Virus record (IMG/VR): IMGVR_UViG_3300042402_005088
Coordinates: 1 to 24,266 of that record
Reading direction: 5' to 3' (one strand)
DNA length: 24,266 bases
Source of the DNA: a virus
Lineage: Duplodnaviria; Caudoviricetes
Part shown: positions 1-21,687 of the stretch, in pieces
How positions within the stretch are numbered: the first letter of the stretch is position 1
How the letters are laid out: each line of letters opens with the position of its first letter
The notes under the pieces: model-generated
The model's input: the letters and a program-made list of their open reading frames with translations, nothing else
Database searches by the model: none
Told to the model about the DNA's origin: nothing
Position numbers and translations under genes: made by a program

Positions 1-3000
1 GCTCCTGCCGTGCCGCCTCGGCCTGCCGCACCAGTTCGGCCTGCTGGGTGTCGCCACCCGCGGCGAGGCGGCGGATGGACAGCGACACGTCGGACTGGCG
101 CAGGGTTTCGGTGCGCTGCGCTTCCAACGCCGCGATTGCCTTGGCGCGTGCCTCGGTGAGGCCGGTTTCGGCAACGCCGTATTGCTGGGCCGATTTGGTA
201 ACGGCGTCGAAATTGTCGTTCACCGCCTGCATTTGGGCGGTGAACGCGGGGATCGCGTCGGTCGTCAGCCCCTTGATCGTGTCCTGGATGCGGATGAAGG
301 ACTCAACGAACTGTTGCAGCCCTTCCACGCCTTGGAAGTTCCGCTGCCGGAGTTGCTCGTCAAGATTCGTGTTGTCCATCGCGGCGAAGCGGAGGCGGCT
401 GAAGCCCTCGCCGATGGTGCCAGCGTCCGCCCAGGAATAGTCAGGGCCGTTCTTGTTGCCGCCGATGACCGAGGCGCCGGCCACGCGGAGATTGCGCGTG
501 TTCAGGTATTCGTTGGTGGCGGCGACTTGCTGTTCTGCCGCCATGAAGGCGGCCTTGCCCTCTTCGTTGTAATATTCATAGGAGATCGGCTTCAGGGCGG
601 TGCCGAAGTCGTTGGTTCCGCCGACGGCTTCGTTGTAGGCGGTGGATTGGAAGCGCAGGCCGTAGCCGCGGACGGATTCGCCGGGGCCGAACAAGCCACC
701 GAGGCCGCCGCCAGCAGCGCCGCCGATCAGGCCGCCGATCAGCGTGCCGACGCCGGGGATCAGGCTTCCGATGATGGCGCCGCCGAGGGCGCCGACACCC
801 GAGCCAACCATACCCCCGGTCTGATTCCCGCCAAGCAGGTTGTTCAGCAGCATGCCAGCGCCGAAGCCCGCACCAGCGCCGCCCAAGACGCCGCCGAGCG
901 TGACGCTGCTGGGGGCCATATAGCCCGCCGCGCCCATGGCGATAGACGGTTCAATTGCGACTGCCGGGCCCGCCCAAAGCGGAGTCGAAAGCAACCCGCC
1001 GCTGCCTGTCAGGCCGATAGAGTCCAATATGGAACGGCCGCCAAAAAGCTGACCAACCCCTAGTAGATCGCCAATACCGCCGCTGCCTCCGAATGCGCCA
1101 GAGAGCGTCTCACGCGGCCCCCTGGAGCCGACGAACAGACTGTTGAGCGCCGGGTTGATCAGCGCCAGCTTAGCGAAATCCGAGACAACCGACACGGCAA
1201 TGCCGCGCGCAACGGTCGCGAAGCTGACGGCCGACGCTTCGCCACGTGTGAACGCATCCACGATGGCATCGCCGACCCGATCGAAGGCGCGTTCGCCAAT
1301 CGCCACCACCGCGTTCCAGCTGCGTTCAGTAAAGTCCTTCGCCCGCTTGGCGGCTTCCTCAGCTTCCTTGTTCGCCTTCTTCAGGTCATCCAGCTTGCGC
1401 ACGCTGGCGCCGATGGCTTCGGCCGCGCGCTTTTCCGCTTCGGTGCGCTTGTCGATATCGGGGATGCCGGCGGCGCGGATTTGGTTTTCGGTTTCGAGCG
1501 CAATGGCGGATTCGCGGCTGGCCTCGGTGCCGGCCAGGGTGCCGGCCAGGGCTTCCTCGGCGGCGCGCACCTGGAGGTTGAGCTTGTCGATGACGTCCTG
1601 GCGCTTTTCCGCGGACTTGGCGGCTTCAACGCCAGCCTTGCCTTCTTCCTCCGCCAGCTTCTTCAGCGCCTCGGCCTGCTCGCGCAGCACGCCGGCACGG
1701 GCTGCGGCGGCATCAAAGCGAGCGCCGGGCACGCCGGGGCTGCCTTGCAGCACGGAAACGCCGGCCGCCTCGGCCTCATCGATCTTGCGCAGTTTCTCGG
1801 CGGTCTCGCGCTGGATCTTCAGCCGCTTGTCTGCGGCTTCCGCCACATCTCGCACTTCAGACGACAGGCGGGTGCGGCGGCTTTCGCTGGCCTGCCGGGC
1901 CGCGTCCTCGGCTTCGGCACGTTGGGATTCGCGATCCTGCCGGCGGATATCCTGCTGCCGGGCCAGGGCCTCGCGCAGTTCCTGGTCCGCGATCTCCATG
2001 GCTTGGCGCAGCCCCGGGGAAACGTCGCCGTAGGCGCTGGCAGCGCGCTCGGCGGCGACCTGCGCGGCCACCTGCTGCTGCCGGCGCTGTGCGGCGACCA
2101 CGCCTTGGTCGGCGGCCTCGCGTTCATTCGGGGCGATCAGGCGGCCAGCAGCACCCAGAGCAGAAGCCCCGGCTTGCATGTAGCGGGCGAAGGTCTGCGA
2201 CAGGCCGGTGATGCGATCCAGCCGCGCGCCGAAGTCTTCCGTGGCGGCTATCAGAATATCCTTCGCCCGGCCCATCGTGACGGGCATCCGGCTGAATTCC
2301 TCGCCCATCTTCTCCGAGGCGCGGAGCAGGGCGGGGAAGACCTTCTCGGCGGTGAGCTGGCCCTCGCTGCCCATCTTGCGTAGCTCGCCGAGACCCACGC
2401 CGAGTTCGCGCGCCAGCGCCTGGGCGAGTTGCGGCATGTTCTCCAGGAGCGAGCGCAATTCGTCGCCCTGTAGCGTGCCGCTGGCCAGCGCCTGGCCCAG
2501 CTGCTGCACCGCGGCACCGGTTTCCTGCGCGCTGGCACCGGCCACGATGCCAGCTTTCTGGATGCCGGAGACCAGCTTCAACACCTGATCGCTAGTGGCG
2601 CCCACCTCTTTCGCGGCCACAGAGAAACGAGCGAAGCTGCCGGCGCTTTCGGCCACCGCCACGCCGGTTTGCTGGCTCAGCGCGAACAGCCGCTCATACA
2701 CCGCCTGCGCCTGTCCCAGCCCGCCGGTGGCGCTGCTGAGGCGGGCCAAGGTGGCGGTAGCGGTATCGCCGGCCTTGGCGATGGCCACGGCTCCCACCGT
2801 TGCCGCCGCGCCGAGGGCGAGGAACCCCGCCGTCAAGCCAGAAGCCACACCAGCAACGCCGGTGAAGGTGCTGCCGATACGGCCGAGCGAGCCGCCCATG
2901 CCCACGAAGGCGCGGTTGGCCACATCGCTGGCAACGGCCAGGCGCTGCATCTCCGGCGCCGCCGCGGCCGAGGCAACGGCGACACGGCGCATCGCCGCCT

Positions 3001-3094
3001 CACCAGCCGGGCCAATTGCCTCGATCTGGCGGCGTGCCTGCTCGGCGCCTTCGGCCGAAATGCGGATGCCCACAGAGGGGCGCGAACCGCTCAT
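1..3094 (-). CDS. Tail tape measure protein, 3' end runs off the window
   Basis: Not in the ORF track, presumably because no stop lies in the window. ATG at 3094 with AGGAGG RBS; manual translation MSGSRPSVGIRISAEG...LGQALASGTLQGDELRSLLENMPQLAQALARELGVGLGELRKMGSEGQLT is the classic tape-measure N-terminal domain; Ala/Gly-rich, >1000 aa, downstream of tail genes. Confidence 0.93.
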   Translation of the reverse strand, partial: MSGSRPSVGIRISAEGAEQARRQIEAIGPAGEAAMRRVAVASAAAAPEMQRLAVASDVANRAFVGMGGSLGRIGSTFTGVAGVASGLTAGFLALGAAATVGAVAIAKAGDTATATLARLSSATGGLGQAQAVYERLFALSQQTGVAVAESAGSFARFSVAAKEVGATSDQVLKLVSGIQKAGIVAGASAQETGAAVQQLGQALASGTLQGDELRSLLENMPQLAQALARELGVGLGELRKMGSEGQLTAEKVFPALLRASEKMGEEFSRMPVTMGRAKDILIAATEDFGARLDRITGLSQTFARYMQAGASALGAAGRLIAPNEREAADQGVVAAQRRQQQVAAQVAAERAASAYGDVSPGLRQAMEIADQELREALARQQDIRRQDRESQRAEAEDAARQASESRRTRLSSEVRDVAEAADKRLKIQRETAEKLRKIDEAEAAGVSVLQGSPGVPGARFDAAAARAGVLREQAEALKKLAEEEGKAGVEAAKSAEKRQDVIDKLNLQVRAAEEALAGTLAGTEASRESAIALETENQIRAAGIPDIDKRTEAEKRAAEAIGASVRKLDDLKKANKEAEEAAKRAKDFTERSWNAVVAIGERAFDRVGDAIVDAFTRGEASAVSFATVARGIAVSVVSDFAKLALINPALNSLFVGSRGPRETLSGAFGGSGGIGDLLGVGQLFGGRSILDSIGLTGSGGLLSTPLWAGPAVAIEPSIAMGAAGYMAPSSVTLGGVLGGAGAGFGAGMLLNNLLGGNQTGGMVGSGVGALGGAIIGSLIPGVGTLIGGLIGGAAGGGLGGLFGPGESVRGYGLRFQSTAYNEAVGGTNDFGTALKPISYEYYNEEGKAAFMAAEQQVAATNEYLNTRNLRVAGASVIGGNKNGPDYSWADAGTIGEGFSRLRFAAMDNTNLDEQLRQRNFQGVEGLQQFVESFIRIQDTIKGLTTDAIPAFTAQMQAVNDNFDAVTKSAQQYGVAETGLTEARAKAIAALEAQRTETLRQSDVSLSIRRLAAGGDTQQAELVRQAEAARQE

Positions 3095-3160: not shown

Positions 3161-3541
3161 ATGCGGGCAGGCGTTGTTGTGGTGGTGGCGCTGTTGGCAG
3201 GGTGCGCCACAGCGGTTTTGCAATCGGATGATCCGCGGCGCGCGGTAGTGCTGGCGCCTTATCTCCGCGTAATCCCACCCTTCGGGCAGGTTCACATACC
3301 GGAAGGGACAGTTTTGTATCCGGCCACCGTGGATGGGCAGCCGTCTTGGTGCTCCACTGCGCCGGTCTATTTTGTGCCTGGTGAGGCCCGCCCGCTATGC
3401 TTGTTTGATCCGAGCGGCGGAAGCCAGACCGAGGGATGGTTCAAGACTGCGTATGTCGCCGGTTCATTGGCAAGCTTACGGTATGATGTCGATGTCCCAT
3501 ATCGAGTGGGACAGCGGCCGGCGCTGCCTCCTCGGCAATAA
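3161..3541 (+). CDS. Predicted lipoprotein, moron-like (possible superinfection exclusion)
   Basis: MRAGVVVVVALLAGC: short hydrophobic signal peptide with LAGC lipobox; GGAGG upstream; opposite strand to the phage late operon; lower GC than flanks. Function is inference. Confidence 0.75.
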   Translation: MRAGVVVVVALLAGCATAVLQSDDPRRAVVLAPYLRVIPPFGQVHIPEGTVLYPATVDGQPSWCSTAPVYFVPGEARPLCLFDPSGGSQTEGWFKTAYVAGSLASLRYDVDVPYRVGQRPALPPRQ

Positions 3542-3564
3542 GGGCGGCGCTTCGGCGCCGCCCT
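3541..3564. terminator. Perfect 10-bp hairpin between convergent units; probable terminator or RNA 3' end
   Basis: AGGGCGGCGC-TTCG-GCGCCGCCCT directly after the lipoprotein stop and at the distal end of the GGY-NN array. U-tracts are weak on both strands. Confidence 0.65.
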
Positions 3565-3573
3565 GCTAACTTA

Positions 3574-3753
3574 GCCTGCCGTGCCCGGCCCAGCCTAGCC
3601 GAGCCATGCCCAACCTGGCCTCGCCATGCCTGCCAGACCACGCCTGGCCTCGCCGAGCCGTGCCCCGCCCCGCCATGCCTCACCTTGCCTGCCACGCCTC
3701 GCCTTGCCTAGCCAAGCCGTGCCTAGCCTCGCCATGCCTGCCCTGCCATGTCC
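3574..3753 (-). ncRNA. GGY-NN pentamer array; putative guide-RNA array of three complete units (VIPR-like)
   Basis: Minus strand parses as 36 GGY triplets (33 GGC, 3 GGT) separated by variable dinucleotides. Phase breaks GGC-A-GGC occur at 3736-3742, 3687-3693, 3628-3634 and 3574-3580. The array begins just after the stop codon at 3760. The repeat is certain; RNA function is inferred. Confidence 0.8.
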
Positions 3754-3759
3754 TTGCAA

Positions 3760-4227
3760 TCAGCGGCGGGCTGCCGCGATCGCCTCCGTCACCGCCGAGA
3801 ATTCGGCGAACTCGCCGTACTTCGACAGCCACACTTCCAGATCGGTCCAGCCTTGCCGGATGACCTGACCGCGTAGTTCCTTCTCGCCCAACACGACATG
3901 CCGGGCTTCGTATCCAAGGCCCACATCCGGCCTTTCGACCGAGACGAAGGCTCGCTTCGGCTCCGACACGCCGCGAGGTGCGACCTTCACCACGATGGCG
4001 CCGACGAGTTGCCGCGCCTGCGCTTCCCGGTGCCGTTCCGCCGCGATGCTGTCGTCCCACTCGAAGGCGCGGTGCAGCACCGAGGTATCCGGCCGGGCTG
4101 CATCCACCACCATGGCCGGGGTGAGGGAGCCGTTGGCACGTTGCCGCAGCAGTTCGATAGTCTCGCCGGCCTGCTGGGCGTTGATGCAAAACCGGGCACC
4201 AGACTTGAACTCGTAACGGAAGCTCAT
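3760..4227 (-). CDS. Conserved phage hypothetical protein (155 aa), partner gene between the Cas7/RAMP-like gene and the array
   Basis: ATG at 4227 overlaps the upstream stop (ATGA) with GGAGG upstream; motif LTPAMVVDAARP...LHRAFEWDDSIAAERHREAQARQLV recognised as a recurring phage family of unknown function. Confidence 0.8.
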   Translation of the reverse strand: MSFRYEFKSGARFCINAQQAGETIELLRQRANGSLTPAMVVDAARPDTSVLHRAFEWDDSIAAERHREAQARQLVGAIVVKVAPRGVSEPKRAFVSVERPDVGLGYEARHVVLGEKELRGQVIRQGWTDLEVWLSKYGEFAEFSAVTEAIAAARR

Positions 4228-4820
4228 GCGCCCTCGCCCTCCGTGGCGACATGGAACATGCCGTAGCTGCCGTCGCGCTCCGGCCGCCACTCCCCGACGC
4301 CAACACCGAAGCCGGCGCTGTTGAACAGGTGCACGATCTGCTCGGCGGAGAGCGCCCCGGCGTTGAACCGGATGGAGAGGTCCACCGACCATTCGGTGAA
4401 TTGGCCGCGGTGACGAATGTCCGCGCCGCCCATGGCGATCTTGACCATGTCCTCCCGCGGCGAGGGCGTGCCGTTGATGCGGGCCAACTCGCCGGGGATG
4501 TGGAAGGCGCCACGCGCTTCCGTCATTCTCAGGCCATCCACGAAGCGGCAGGCGGACACGGCCGCCGCCTTGAATGCGACGGTGGGAAAGCCGTAGCCGC
4601 GGCCGTCCGGCATCGGGTAGAGCGAGGCCTCGTAGTCGGCTTGCGGGTCCTTCGCCTCCCTCGCCGCCTTGGCCCGTTTCATCTGCTTGTCCAGCATCTG
4701 CTTCTTCGCCTTCTCGCTCCAGGCGTGGCAGATCAGCGGGCTGTCACCAACGAGACGCAGGCCCATCACGCGAAGGTCAAGGGGCGGCAGCTGGATTGCC
4801 TGGGTGGGTGACTTGCTCAT
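4224..4820 (-). CDS. Cas7/RAMP-like RNA-binding protein (198 aa), Vipr-like
   Basis: ATG at 4820 with AGGAGG RBS. RAMP-like hallmarks in order: N-terminal strand LRLVGDSPLICH, GFPTVAFKAAAVSA helix, RHRGQFTEWSVDLSIRF strand, and a C-terminal Gly-rich loop AGFGVGVGEWRPERDGSYGMF. Confidence 0.8.
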   Translation of the reverse strand: MSKSPTQAIQLPPLDLRVMGLRLVGDSPLICHAWSEKAKKQMLDKQMKRAKAAREAKDPQADYEASLYPMPDGRGYGFPTVAFKAAAVSACRFVDGLRMTEARGAFHIPGELARINGTPSPREDMVKIAMGGADIRHRGQFTEWSVDLSIRFNAGALSAEQIVHLFNSAGFGVGVGEWRPERDGSYGMFHVATEGEGA

Positions 4821-5089
4821 CACACCACCTCCTGCGCAGCGGCGATCCGGTTGAGGTCGCCCAGGATGCCGCGCGCAAGCCGGGCATCCGTGGATGGCGC
4901 ATGACGATGCCATGGCATACCCATGATGCTGTCCAGGCTCTCCTCGTCCGTGGCGTCAATCTGCCCATAGGTCCAGCGCAGCGCCCGGACTTTCACCAGT
5001 ATGCCTTCCATCGTCACAGGCGCGTGTTTCTCGATTTGCCGAACCACGGCGCTGGTTCGGTCCATGGCGGCGCTGGCGGCCTCGGACAT
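4820..5089 (-). CDS. Hypothetical protein (89 aa), possibly N-terminally truncated
   Basis: MSEAASAAMDR...PVTMEGILVKVRALRW...; its stop overlaps the next start (TGATG). No clear RBS, and the upstream sequence belongs to an opposite-strand gene remnant. Confidence 0.55.
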   Translation of the reverse strand: MSEAASAAMDRTSAVVRQIEKHAPVTMEGILVKVRALRWTYGQIDATDEESLDSIMGMPWHRHAPSTDARLARGILGDLNRIAAAQEVV

Positions 5090-5100
5090 CGCGTCGTCGC

Positions 5101-5202
5101 GCGTGGCGTCGGCTGCAACCCGACATCCCCACCCGCGCCGAAGCCATCCGCCGCTTGATCGAACTCGGCCTGGAAGCCTCCAAGGCAAAGCCCACGTCCT
5201 AG
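5101..5202 (+). pseudogene. C-terminal remnant of a ribbon-helix-helix (CopG/Arc-like) regulator
   Basis: Manual translation AWRRLQPDIPTRAEAIRRLIELGLEASKAKPTS*; no in-frame ATG/GTG/TTG between the upstream stop at 4924 and the motif; its TAG overlaps the convergent gene's TAG (CTAG, 5199-5202). Confidence 0.65.
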
Positions 5203-5945
5203 CGCCCGCTCGCCAACTCCCGCACCGCAGCGGCGGCGAACCAACCCGGCGCCTGTGCGCGCACCTGATCGACGTTGAGCCGCTTTCGCAGGCTGACCTG
5301 CCGGGCCAGGAAGAACATCGGCACAAAGCCCTTGGCCAGGATCTCCCGGCGGCGCTGTGCGGCGCCCTTGCCGCGCGCGGTGCCGATTTCCGTCGCGGTG
5401 CCCACAAACAGCCGCAGCCGGTTGCGGGTGCGCTTCGTCACGCCATAGGCCCCGGCCACGCGCAGGCACCAAAGGCGCAGGCGGGGGTTGGATTTGCTGG
5501 GGATGATGAACGCCTCCCCGCGCTTGCCGGCGGCGATCATCTGTTGCGGGGTGATGCGAAGGCCACCGCGCCGGCCGGCGCCGCGGCGGCCACCGACGGC
5601 GTTGTAGCCGGTGGGGAAGGCCAGATACTTGCCGCCCTTGGCCGTGATCGTGGCGCCCTGGTCGAACGCCGTCACCACATCAGGCATTCGGCTATACACC
5701 AGCGCGGCAGGCTTCAGCGTGCGCGGAGCACGGCCTGGCGGGGGATAGACGGCTAGGCGCCAGCTGTTCGCAACCGCTTTGCCGCCATCCCTGAAACCGG
5801 CAGCGCGGGCTTGGTTCCGCAGGGCGGCCTGGGTAAGCCGACCGGCGGTCGAAACTGCCCGGCGCATGCCGGCGGCCACGCGCACCAGTTCCTGATCCAG
5901 CGCCTTGGAGAGATTGCCGGTGACGGTCGCCTTGAGGAGGGTCAT
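5199..5945 (-). CDS. Phage neck/tail completion-type protein, DUF6441-like (248 aa)
   Basis: ATG at 5945 overlaps the upstream stop; basic protein with ANSWRLAVYP, AALVYSRMP, AFDQGATI, YLAFPT and VPMFFLARQVSLRKRL motifs typical of this alphaproteobacterial phage family. Confidence 0.75.
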   Translation of the reverse strand: MTLLKATVTGNLSKALDQELVRVAAGMRRAVSTAGRLTQAALRNQARAAGFRDGGKAVANSWRLAVYPPPGRAPRTLKPAALVYSRMPDVVTAFDQGATITAKGGKYLAFPTGYNAVGGRRGAGRRGGLRITPQQMIAAGKRGEAFIIPSKSNPRLRLWCLRVAGAYGVTKRTRNRLRLFVGTATEIGTARGKGAAQRRREILAKGFVPMFFLARQVSLRKRLNVDQVRAQAPGWFAAAAVRELASGR

Positions 5946-19374: not shown

Positions 19375-19709
19375 CACCACGTCGCCACCCCAAACATCGC
19401 CGCCATCGCCGCATCACTCACGACCACCTGCGCATGCCCGGCCAGCACCGCCCCATTCTTCCGGCACTTGAACAGTTGCCACCGCGGCGCATCCGTCCCG
19501 TTGCCGATGGTGAGCCCGCCGCTGATCCAGCCGTTTTCGTCGGGGGCGTTGGTGGCGAGGGTGACGCGCTGGCCGTCGGTGGTGGTGGCGAGCATCAGGC
19601 CCTGCCCCGCGTTGTGCCAGGTGGCGAGCGCCCATTGCCGCTCCTGCACGCCTTCGCCGATGCGGATCGTGCCGGCGCGGGGGTTGGTGGTGAGGGTGAT
19701 GCGGATCAT
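19374..19709 (-). CDS. Hypothetical protein (111 aa)
   Basis: ATG at 19709 overlaps the upstream stop (ATGA); stop overlaps the next start. Confidence 0.65.
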   Translation of the reverse strand: MIRITLTTNPRAGTIRIGEGVQERQWALATWHNAGQGLMLATTTDGQRVTLATNAPDENGWISGGLTIGNGTDAPRWQLFKCRKNGAVLAGHAQVVVSDAAMAAMFGVATW

Positions 19710-20209
19710 CGGCGCCACCACTTCCACGCAGCAAACCCTGCGGAGGCGTAGCACTTGGCCAGGATCAGCCCCGGCGCCCACTTCACGGTCCCGAACGCCA
19801 GCGCGGAAAACAGCAGGCTATCCAGCACGGCGCCAACGAAGCCCGACGCCAGCACAGCTGCCCACATGGCCCGCTTGCGGAGCCGGTCATAGACAGCGAA
19901 ATCCGCCAGTTCTGAGAGCAGGAACGCGACAGCCGACGCCATGGCGAGCGCGGGCGGGGAGAACGCAAGGGATAAGCCGGCGCTGGCTGCGATCAGCGCC
20001 GCCACGGCCCATCGCGGCAACCGCTCATGCAAGGCGTCTCGAAGCGCCAGCGCGGCCCCGATCAGCAACACGCCAGACGGCGCCATGAGGCCGGGCGCCA
20101 CTGGGATAAGGCACGGGCCGTTGGAAATGCACGATCCCACGTTGCCGATCAGCCAATTGGCGGCGGGGATGGTGGCGAGGAAGGAGGCGGAGAGAAGGGC
20201 GGTCTTCAT
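19706..20209 (-). CDS. VUT/YhhQ-family (queuosine precursor transporter-like) membrane protein
   Basis: 167 aa, multi-TM; ANW, LRDALHE, ASAVAFLLSELADFAVYDRLR and VGAVLDSLLFSALAFG motifs. Confidence 0.85.
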   Translation of the reverse strand: MKTALLSASFLATIPAANWLIGNVGSCISNGPCLIPVAPGLMAPSGVLLIGAALALRDALHERLPRWAVAALIAASAGLSLAFSPPALAMASAVAFLLSELADFAVYDRLRKRAMWAAVLASGFVGAVLDSLLFSALAFGTVKWAPGLILAKCYASAGFAAWKWWRR

Positions 20210-21411: not shown

Positions 21412-21687
21412 CTACATCCCCAGCGCGCGCCGGTAGACGTCCAGAAGCGTCTCATGCTCCTCGACCTCGGCCGGCTCCTGCTTGCGCAGCCGGATCAGTT
21501 GCCGCATCACCTTCACATCAAAGCCGGCCGACTTGGCTTCGGCGAAGATGTCCTTGATGTCGGACGAGAGCCCCTTCTTCTCCTCCTCGAGCCTCTCGAT
21601 ACGCTCGATCAGGCCGCGGAGACGCTCGGCGGAGATGTTGCCCCATTGGGCGGCATCATCCCCGCTGTTGTGCCCCGGCTCGCTCAT
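21412..21687 (-). CDS. gapR: GapR/DUF2312-family nucleoid-associated protein
   Basis: ERLRGLIERIERLEEEKKGLSSDIKDIFAEAKSAGFDVKVMRQLIRLRK...LLDVYRRALGM is the DUF2312 signature. Confidence 0.93.
   Translation of the reverse strand: MSEPGHNSGDDAAQWGNISAERLRGLIERIERLEEEKKGLSSDIKDIFAEAKSAGFDVKVMRQLIRLRKQEPAEVEEHETLLDVYRRALGM

Follow-up and report, generated by a model that had tools for sequence, protein, structure and literature searches.

Two guides of a VIPR array in a phage tail gene cluster match the tape measure gene of kin phages more closely than that of their carrier

We analysed a stretch of 24,266 nucleotides from a virus of the Caudoviricetes (Duplodnaviria; IMG/VR record IMGVR_UViG_3300042402_005088, positions 1 to 24,266), and refer to this whole stretch as the window. 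Its genes include those for terminase, portal, capsid and the tape measure protein (TMP), and represent a lambda-like head and tail cluster. The early region also carries a GapR-like DNA-binding gene (21412-21687, minus strand, Pfam E = 1e-33) and a gene of the Vut_1 family (19706-20209, minus strand, E = 2e-10). The stretch is present in lake-water metagenome runs, and no RNA run is found among those listed as containing it. Relatives are found in bins of Acetobacteraceae and Rhodospirillales as well as in Roseomonas-type genomes, and a search of INPHARED for a close cultured phage gave 858 matches, every one below 60%. The TMP gene runs off the window and encodes 1667 aa in a longer record (P0121). 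The genes at the locus are as follows:

1..3094, minus strand, 5' part of the TMP gene (Pfam TMP_3, E = 4.8e-48)
3161..3541, plus strand, 126-aa ORF convergent on the array, without a Pfam match and found only in the phage's own record
3760..4227, minus strand, vap-like accessory gene of 155 aa, with a homolog in 30 of 41 other vipr loci
4224..4820, minus strand, vipr, encoding a 198-aa RAMP-like effector that matches the Vipr of SUSP1
4820..5062, minus strand, 80-aa ORF immediately preceding vipr, seen solely in the phage's own record
5199..5945, minus strand, DUF6441 gene, which adjoins TMP in relatives

Because the DUF6441 gene adjoins TMP in relatives, the genes between the two represent an inserted cassette. 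No vipr was found in the flanks of the relatives' DUF6441 and TMP genes, and 2 of 24 other related records carry a distant vipr elsewhere in the record. Two orphan ORFs (3161-3541, plus strand, and 4820-5062, minus strand) accompany the cassette and are absent from every other fetched locus. The first of them is a passenger of the insertion, and its N-terminus presumably resembles a lipoprotein motif. A single-sequence structure model of the vap-like protein has a pLDDT of 42.5.

In VIPR systems, guides pair under a 1-nt skip rule and align with the wobble positions of their targets, no PAM is used, and the outcome is transcriptional repression (Yoon et al., 10.64898/2026.04.26.720920). The VIPR preprints describe a Vipr protein that oligomerises on the RNA and hides GGY while the NN bases pair. 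The 198-aa protein of the window matches SUSP1 Vipr 36pp_D (phmmer E = 1.1e-5, profile E = 1.2e-7), mainly over the C-terminal 60 residues, and judged by its sequence it has what defines a Vipr, a RAMP homolog with G-loop and thumb. Its residues H32, R138, E177, W178 and R179 align to H17, R138, D177, W178 and R179 of SUSP1 and are invariant across 111 homologs. In the accessible part of the report on the Vipr-vrRNA-DNA R-loop triplex (10.64898/2026.04.26.720927), H17, R138, D177, W178 and R179 are the GGY-binding residues, so that each has a counterpart here, with Glu in place of D177 in a comparison made by sequence. The 30 ORFs scanned in the window include no Cas families and the locus has no Rfam match, and it holds what a minimal VIPR locus requires, vipr with one vap gene in a phage without cas or CRISPR.

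The guide array lies between the TMP gene and the vap-like gene:

3572..3747, minus strand, whole array; 36 of 36 parsed steps start with GGY, and the units are parted by 4-nt GGCA slips (staggered type)
3694..3738, minus strand, vrRNA unit 1, 9 GGYNN repeats
3635..3689, minus strand, vrRNA unit 2, 11 GGYNN repeats, followed by a 4-nt GGCA slip at 3634-3631
3581..3630, minus strand, vrRNA unit 3, 10 GGYNN repeats
3541..3564, minus strand, 10-pair GC hairpin that ends the array

The unit lengths of 9, 11 and 10 repeats fall within the 9-16 GGY/NN pentamers that characterise VIPR guides. The junctions at 3693, 3634 and 3580 read GGCA|GGC, as they do in many related loci, and neighbouring vrRNAs share 1 nt where one finishes and the other begins, which agrees with the staggered arrays of Yoon et al. 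as described in the legend of their fig. S18. Type II VIPR (SUSP1, P. fulva) is marked by a conserved, structured 3' tail behind every repeat tract; such tails are absent here, and the units abut through 4-nt slips, where SUSP1 has a pseudoknot tail of about 40 nt between units. The terminal hairpin is likely a terminator or 3' cap, although it has no T run and a terminator scan did not call it. We assign the locus to VIPR, with an array of the staggered type, and therefore the NN-skip-1 code was already known; the code itself is not new, and the initial annotation had rediscovered a published rule. VIPR arrays are widespread according to the accessible part of a genomic-language-model preprint (10.64898/2026.10.21.760802). 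Long staggered arrays of about 6-13 units occur at L071:11059-11670, L072:2248-2990, L073:4404-4910 and L079:11320-11650, and have many GTC, GAC and GCG scaffold variants of GGY inside their units.

We compared the dinucleotides of each unit with the window itself, and two sites in the TMP gene are central to what follows:

2579..2611, minus strand, own copy of the unit 2 footprint, TMP codons 162-172, KEVGATSDQVL, 17/22
560..586, minus strand, own copy of the unit 1 footprint, TMP codons 837-845, ISYEYYNEE, 12/18

With a 1-nt skip, unit 2 matches TMP codons 162-172 in frame at 17/22 nt and 7/11 dinucleotides, with the wobble base skipped and 9/11 residues compatible. The initial annotation had read the dinucleotides, the codons, the match and the wobble skip in exactly this way and had also counted nine agreeing residues. 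This site is the best in the window at skip 1, where the runner-up scores 14, and the best window site at skip 3 scores 16/22. Among order-shuffled unit 2 guides, 34 of 3000 score 17 or better somewhere in the window, and 28 of 3000 do so at the wobble-aligned sites of the 19 ORFs only. Since three units and four skip rules were tried, the self match alone is only suggestive, and the earlier view that the nucleotide match is not decisive by itself is borne out by these shuffles. The best self scores in the window are 17/22 for unit 2, 12/18 for unit 1 and 13/20 for unit 3, none of which reaches 80%.

At the homologous TMP site, unit 2 scores 18-20/22 in 34 of the 41 related loci, or in 26 of 31 when only distinct contexts are considered, a count that leaves out the phage's own record (L006) and the distant loci L030-L032, L049 and L050 (14-16/22). 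Most relatives therefore match the guide better than the carrier's own copy, the outcome on which the initial annotation had made its reading of unit 2, as a guide with an NN-skip-1 code against the TMP gene of a related phage, depend. In a permutation set of 44 TMP-family loci, which keeps L030-L032 and L049, unit 2 scores at least 18 in 33 loci, and each of 150 shuffles does so in 0-1 of 44. With skips of 0, 2 and 3 it never scores above 15 on the TMP loci, and we rejected these skips as the pairing rule because only the 1-nt skip gives the relatives' matches. The TMP target of unit 2 is decisive because the relatives' loci match far beyond the shuffles, and at skip 1 only.

The guide's Ile164 is found in 93 of 120 TMP homologs and its Gly166 in 56 of 120. 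The peptide predicted earlier as the target, KEIGGTSDQVL, exists: homolog P0243 reads exactly this sequence and is fully compatible with unit 2. Homolog P0136 reads KDIGGTSDQVL, is likewise fully compatible and scores 19-22/22 depending on its Ser and Leu codons, and the sister P0122 scores 20-21/22, both being known as protein only. The best TMP homologs are in general known only as proteins, reaching up to 22/22 by peptide, and the best TMP match in DNA is 20/22 (L007). No 22/22 unit 2 site was found in TMP DNA in IMG/VR, GTDB or the JGI metagenomes. The perfect pattern has no occurrence in IMG/VR and none in GTDB, patterns with up to 2 mismatches have none in 401 genomes from the family of an Acetobacteraceae bin, and relaxed patterns recovered only L001, L002, the phage's own record and the contig of L007. 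The search for the perfect target that the earlier proposal had called for yielded two unrelated metagenome contigs (L004 and L005), which carry a 22/22 site in the same small non-TMP ORF; we take these matches as chance. By eye this ORF appears helix-turn-helix-like (L004:4900-5130 and its equivalent in L005).

If the TMP match were due to chance, the true target would lie elsewhere, for example in this small ORF of DNA-binding type, and its 22/22 match, together with a P of about 0.01 for the self match alone, would fit that explanation. L004 and L005 represent the same unrelated locus, though, and such an occurrence is of the order that chance permits in a collection of 241 million records. 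Chance would leave unexplained both the signal across the TMP family and the fact that another guide falls on this gene too. We consider a chance match very improbable. Unit 2 is very probably a VIPR guide directed at the TMP gene of related phages.

For unit 1, the best site in the window is 586-560 (12/18), which is insignificant alone because most shuffles reach that level. P0122 and P0189 read IDYTYYNEE at this site and would match unit 1 at exactly 16/18 whatever codons are used, and among 1000 shuffles a single one attains this score over 122 proteins. A further homolog that another search brought up, P0364, has IDYTFYNEE there and gives 17/18. In the DNA of the TMP loci, unit 1 scores at most 14/18, in 6 of 44 loci; a single shuffle among the 150 came to 5 of 44. 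Compared by sequence, unit 1 appears to target the same gene as unit 2, at TMP codons 837-845. A perfect unit 1 pattern in L094 and L095 was rejected, since these are unrelated AT-rich records and 18 bases are at chance level; one match is antisense in a large ORF and the other lies in a helicase-like gene. Both units thus have what is expected of VIPR targets, a skip of 1, mostly wobble alignment and at least 80% NN identity in another element, and for both a target in the TMP of relatives is very probable. For unit 3, no target was found in IMG/VR, 0 of 25 related records matched at 3 mismatches, and its scores in the TMP proteins and loci are at shuffle level. An antisense site at 75-103 with 13/20 was rejected for unit 3 because its peptide is identical in the three nearest homologs.

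The guides might instead be relics of an attack on an ancestor of the TMP family, decaying together with their targets and without a present function. The lack of a perfect TMP target in DNA and of any target for unit 3 would be expected of relics. Decay is difficult to reconcile with the 36 of 36 scaffold steps that keep GGY, unlike the degenerate arrays of two related phages, with the intact vipr and vap genes, and with the existence of fully compatible peptides, and we regard relics as improbable.

To describe the divergence of the carrier's own TMP, we compared it with its nearest homologs inside and outside the two footprints. In a quick tree it groups with P0122 (support 83), and the other 9 members have Ile164 and 8 of them Gly166. 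Relative to P0122, 5 of 20 footprint residues differ, versus 25 of 889 elsewhere (P = 3e-4), where the background consists of high-identity stretches defined without the footprints; with a looser cut the background becomes 33 of 996 (P = 6e-4). Relative to P0189, 2 of 9 residues differ in the unit 1 footprint versus 8 of 851 elsewhere (P = 0.004), and the two comparisons are not independent because both share the same two unit 1 changes. P0122 and P0189 are identical to one another across this footprint. Between residues 798 and 1000, the own TMP differs from P0189 only at S838 and E840, which are private to it among the three nearest homologs, and each of the two changes loses two matched bases. 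In the unit 2 footprint, V164 differs from 12 of the 12 nearest homologs and A166 from 11 of 12. The own copy matches the guides at 77% (unit 2) and 67% (unit 1) and the sister's at 91-95% and 89%, so that the carrier lies below and the sister above 80%, a value that is the search threshold of Yoon et al. and not a measured binding limit. That the changes are directed away from the guide adds no further evidence, because this is expected of a copy derived from a well-matched ancestor.

The footprint signal is non-synonymous. The initial annotation had read the synonymous codon-family swaps at Ser168 and Leu172 as escape-like, an argument that fails for Ser and is weak for Leu. Codon 168 in 31 distinct relatives is Asn AAY in 29, AGC in 1 and CAG in 1, with no TCN; the own AGC, which a single step separates from AAC, gives no lower score than AAC and is the commonest Ser codon of the phage (100 of 270). 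Ser codon-family differences are frequent outside the footprint (33 of 69 pairs with nine relatives, pairs that are not independent), and two such swaps, at residues 875 and 887, distinguish the two lake alleles at 302-502. We thus rejected a synonymous escape swap at Ser168, as relatives mostly have AAC and such swaps are background, and a path from TCN via the Thr of the sister would be possible. At Leu172 the own TTG is rare, since 27 of 28 Leu codons of relatives at this site are CTN; TTG makes up 26 of 343 Leu codons in the phage, and Leu codon-family differences outside the footprint occur in 22 of 154 pairs with the nine relatives, again not independent.

The TMP gene (window 1-3094) is strongly mosaic, and stretches that are 96-100% identical to P0122, P0189 or P0166 alternate in it with others at 25-60%. 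Each of the two lake runs X1 and X2 contains a pair of TMP alleles at 302-502 that differ at 22 of 201 bases, nearly all of them third positions, and this patch is a recombination patch segregating in the population. No alternative allele over either footprint was found in the lake runs, of which X1 also contains a contig with a diverged TMP. Because the gene is mosaic and two alleles coexist in the lake, recombination could supply the footprint residues without selection, and the guides would still target the TMP of relatives while the mismatches in the own copy reflect ordinary family variation. The sites do vary in the family, with Val164 in 27 and Ala166 in 63 of 120 homologs and Ser838 in many distant ones; other clades ordinarily have V164 and A166, Val-Gly-Ala being standard there at 164-166, and L001 and L002 share the Val, the Ala and the AGC Ser. 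The variable unit 1 site, the mosaic identity, the polymorphic patch 302-502 and the common Ser and Leu family swaps point in the same direction. Variation without selection does not readily explain why the residues that distinguish the own copy from the sister are concentrated in two footprints separated by 675 codons (P = 3e-4 to 6e-4), or why the sole two differences from P0189 over residues 798-1000 fall inside a 9-codon footprint. The codon usage inside the footprints is not unusual, and hence no foreign patch is evident. We consider this alternative unlikely, though it is the strongest of those weighed here.

A partial self match could also be functional, with Vipr weakly binding the own TMP gene and damping late transcription, for example in a lysogen. 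The 77% match lies beside the cassette, a guide in the unrelated phage locus L073 has a self match of 82%, and the passages searched in the VIPR preprints do not give a mismatch tolerance. We think such a role rather improbable, since relatives match better at both sites, the own unit 1 site at 12/18 is at shuffle level, and the own gene has changed away from the guide rather than towards it. On these comparisons of sequences, the own TMP has probably been driven out of range of the guides by amino acid changes at both sites, as a form of selected self-avoidance. The earlier proposal that the carrier avoids self-targeting through first- and second-position changes stands as far as the divergence is concerned, which exceeds that elsewhere in the gene, while the avoidance itself is something that we infer.

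The explanation that we favor, and hold to be reasonably probable as a whole, is that units 1 and 2 steer Vipr onto the TMP gene of related phages and that the own copy has escaped. A VIPR cassette would have been inserted into the tail cluster of the phage, with the array as its guide array, most likely cut into three RNAs that would each be coated by Vipr. With GGY hidden by Vipr, the NN bases would pair with the template strand of the relative's TMP gene, and Vipr filaments on this gene may block transcription of the tail cluster in a relative that co-infects the cell or resides in it. The array would accordingly be expressed, the tail assembly of relatives silenced, and the own gene placed under selection. 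As there is no PAM and wobble changes are not protective, a carrier can be protected only by differences at the first or second position of a codon, and here these would consist mainly of amino acid changes. The order of events may be either escape followed by capture of the cassette, or capture followed by escape.

Similar patterns were sought in other carriers. We screened 40 guides taken from 14 further vipr loci; 2 of them have a self match that is reached by 0 of 300 shuffles, and only 1 of the 40 gave a significant wobble-aligned self match; flanks of at most 10 kb per locus make this count a lower bound. In L073, a guide (4699-4753) matches the phage's own portal gene (5149-5181, minus strand) at 18/22 (82%), wobble-aligned and above the 80% cut. 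The commonest form among 120 portal homologs scores 21/22, 58 homologs certainly match better than the own copy, and the own portal Cys is rare, being common to 4 of 120, which by sequence comparison appears similar to the TMP case of the window. A guide of L072 (2248) matches an own portal-like gene (218-259) at 20/28, which 0 of 300 shuffles reach; we did not count it as a second case, as the skipped base is off the wobble position. Two phages of the TMP family have a distant vipr of their own, together with degenerate arrays, at G407:9339-9965 (L099) and G406:34018-34623 (L100). The seven guides parsed from these arrays have no significant target, and the TMP genes of the two phages match unit 2 of the window at 19/22 (G407) and 18/22 (G406), so that VIPR carriers may target each other.

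Phage-borne mini CRISPR arrays hold guides against related phages, from which the carrier is protected by differences at the target site. CRISPR relies on contiguous pairing and on a PAM or the repeat for discrimination, and wobble changes suffice for escape. The case described here is similar in that guides are aimed at relatives and the carrier is protected at the target site, and differs in pairing and in discrimination.

With the systems of Yoon et al. the locus shares a phage vipr and vap pair, 9-16 GGY/NN repeats per guide, the wobble skip and targets in competing phages. The targets reported there are a satellite, switch genes of a resident prophage and other VIPRs, and self hits of at least 80% are reported to be absent. 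Here, unlike in those cases, the target is the ortholog, in relatives, of an essential gene of the carrier itself, and the changes cluster in the footprints. The SUSP1 system acts against F5 satellites and uses solo vrRNAs (Lopez et al., 10.64898/2026.10.15.759431), and in the accessible part of that report wobble-aligned guides on a conserved essential gene are also described. The same part reports a lower self than non-self match only for guides aimed at vrRNAs, and holds that a coding target has no escape that would leave its gene intact, with decoy RNAs as the counter-measure. In the carrier studied here, a structural gene appears to have escaped through tolerated amino acid changes, unlike what that part of Lopez et al. 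describes. We found no report of VIPR self-avoidance at the protein level in the VIPR preprints consulted or in searches of the literature, and the supplementary target tables may hold similar cases.

VIPR is blind to the wobble position and uses no PAM, which raises the question of how a carrier avoids silencing itself when its targets lie in near relatives. The locus provides natural pairs of sites, one pair for each of two guides directed at a single gene, with 17/22 and 12/18 for the own copy versus 20/22 and 16-17/18 for relatives, so that the mismatch threshold and the rule separating self from non-self become directly testable. The view that wobble-aligned coding targets cannot escape would have to be qualified, as the TMP appears to have done so. 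We propose, tentatively and as somewhat less probable than the reading of this locus alone, that VIPR carriers wage war on their kin, targeting the orthologs of their own essential virion genes and rewriting their own protein at the footprints. If this is true, guide footprints would be a predictable cause of amino acid divergence in phage structural proteins, the mismatch threshold that holds in nature would be marked by the genes of the carriers themselves, and every gain of a cassette would divide a phage population into silencers and silenced.
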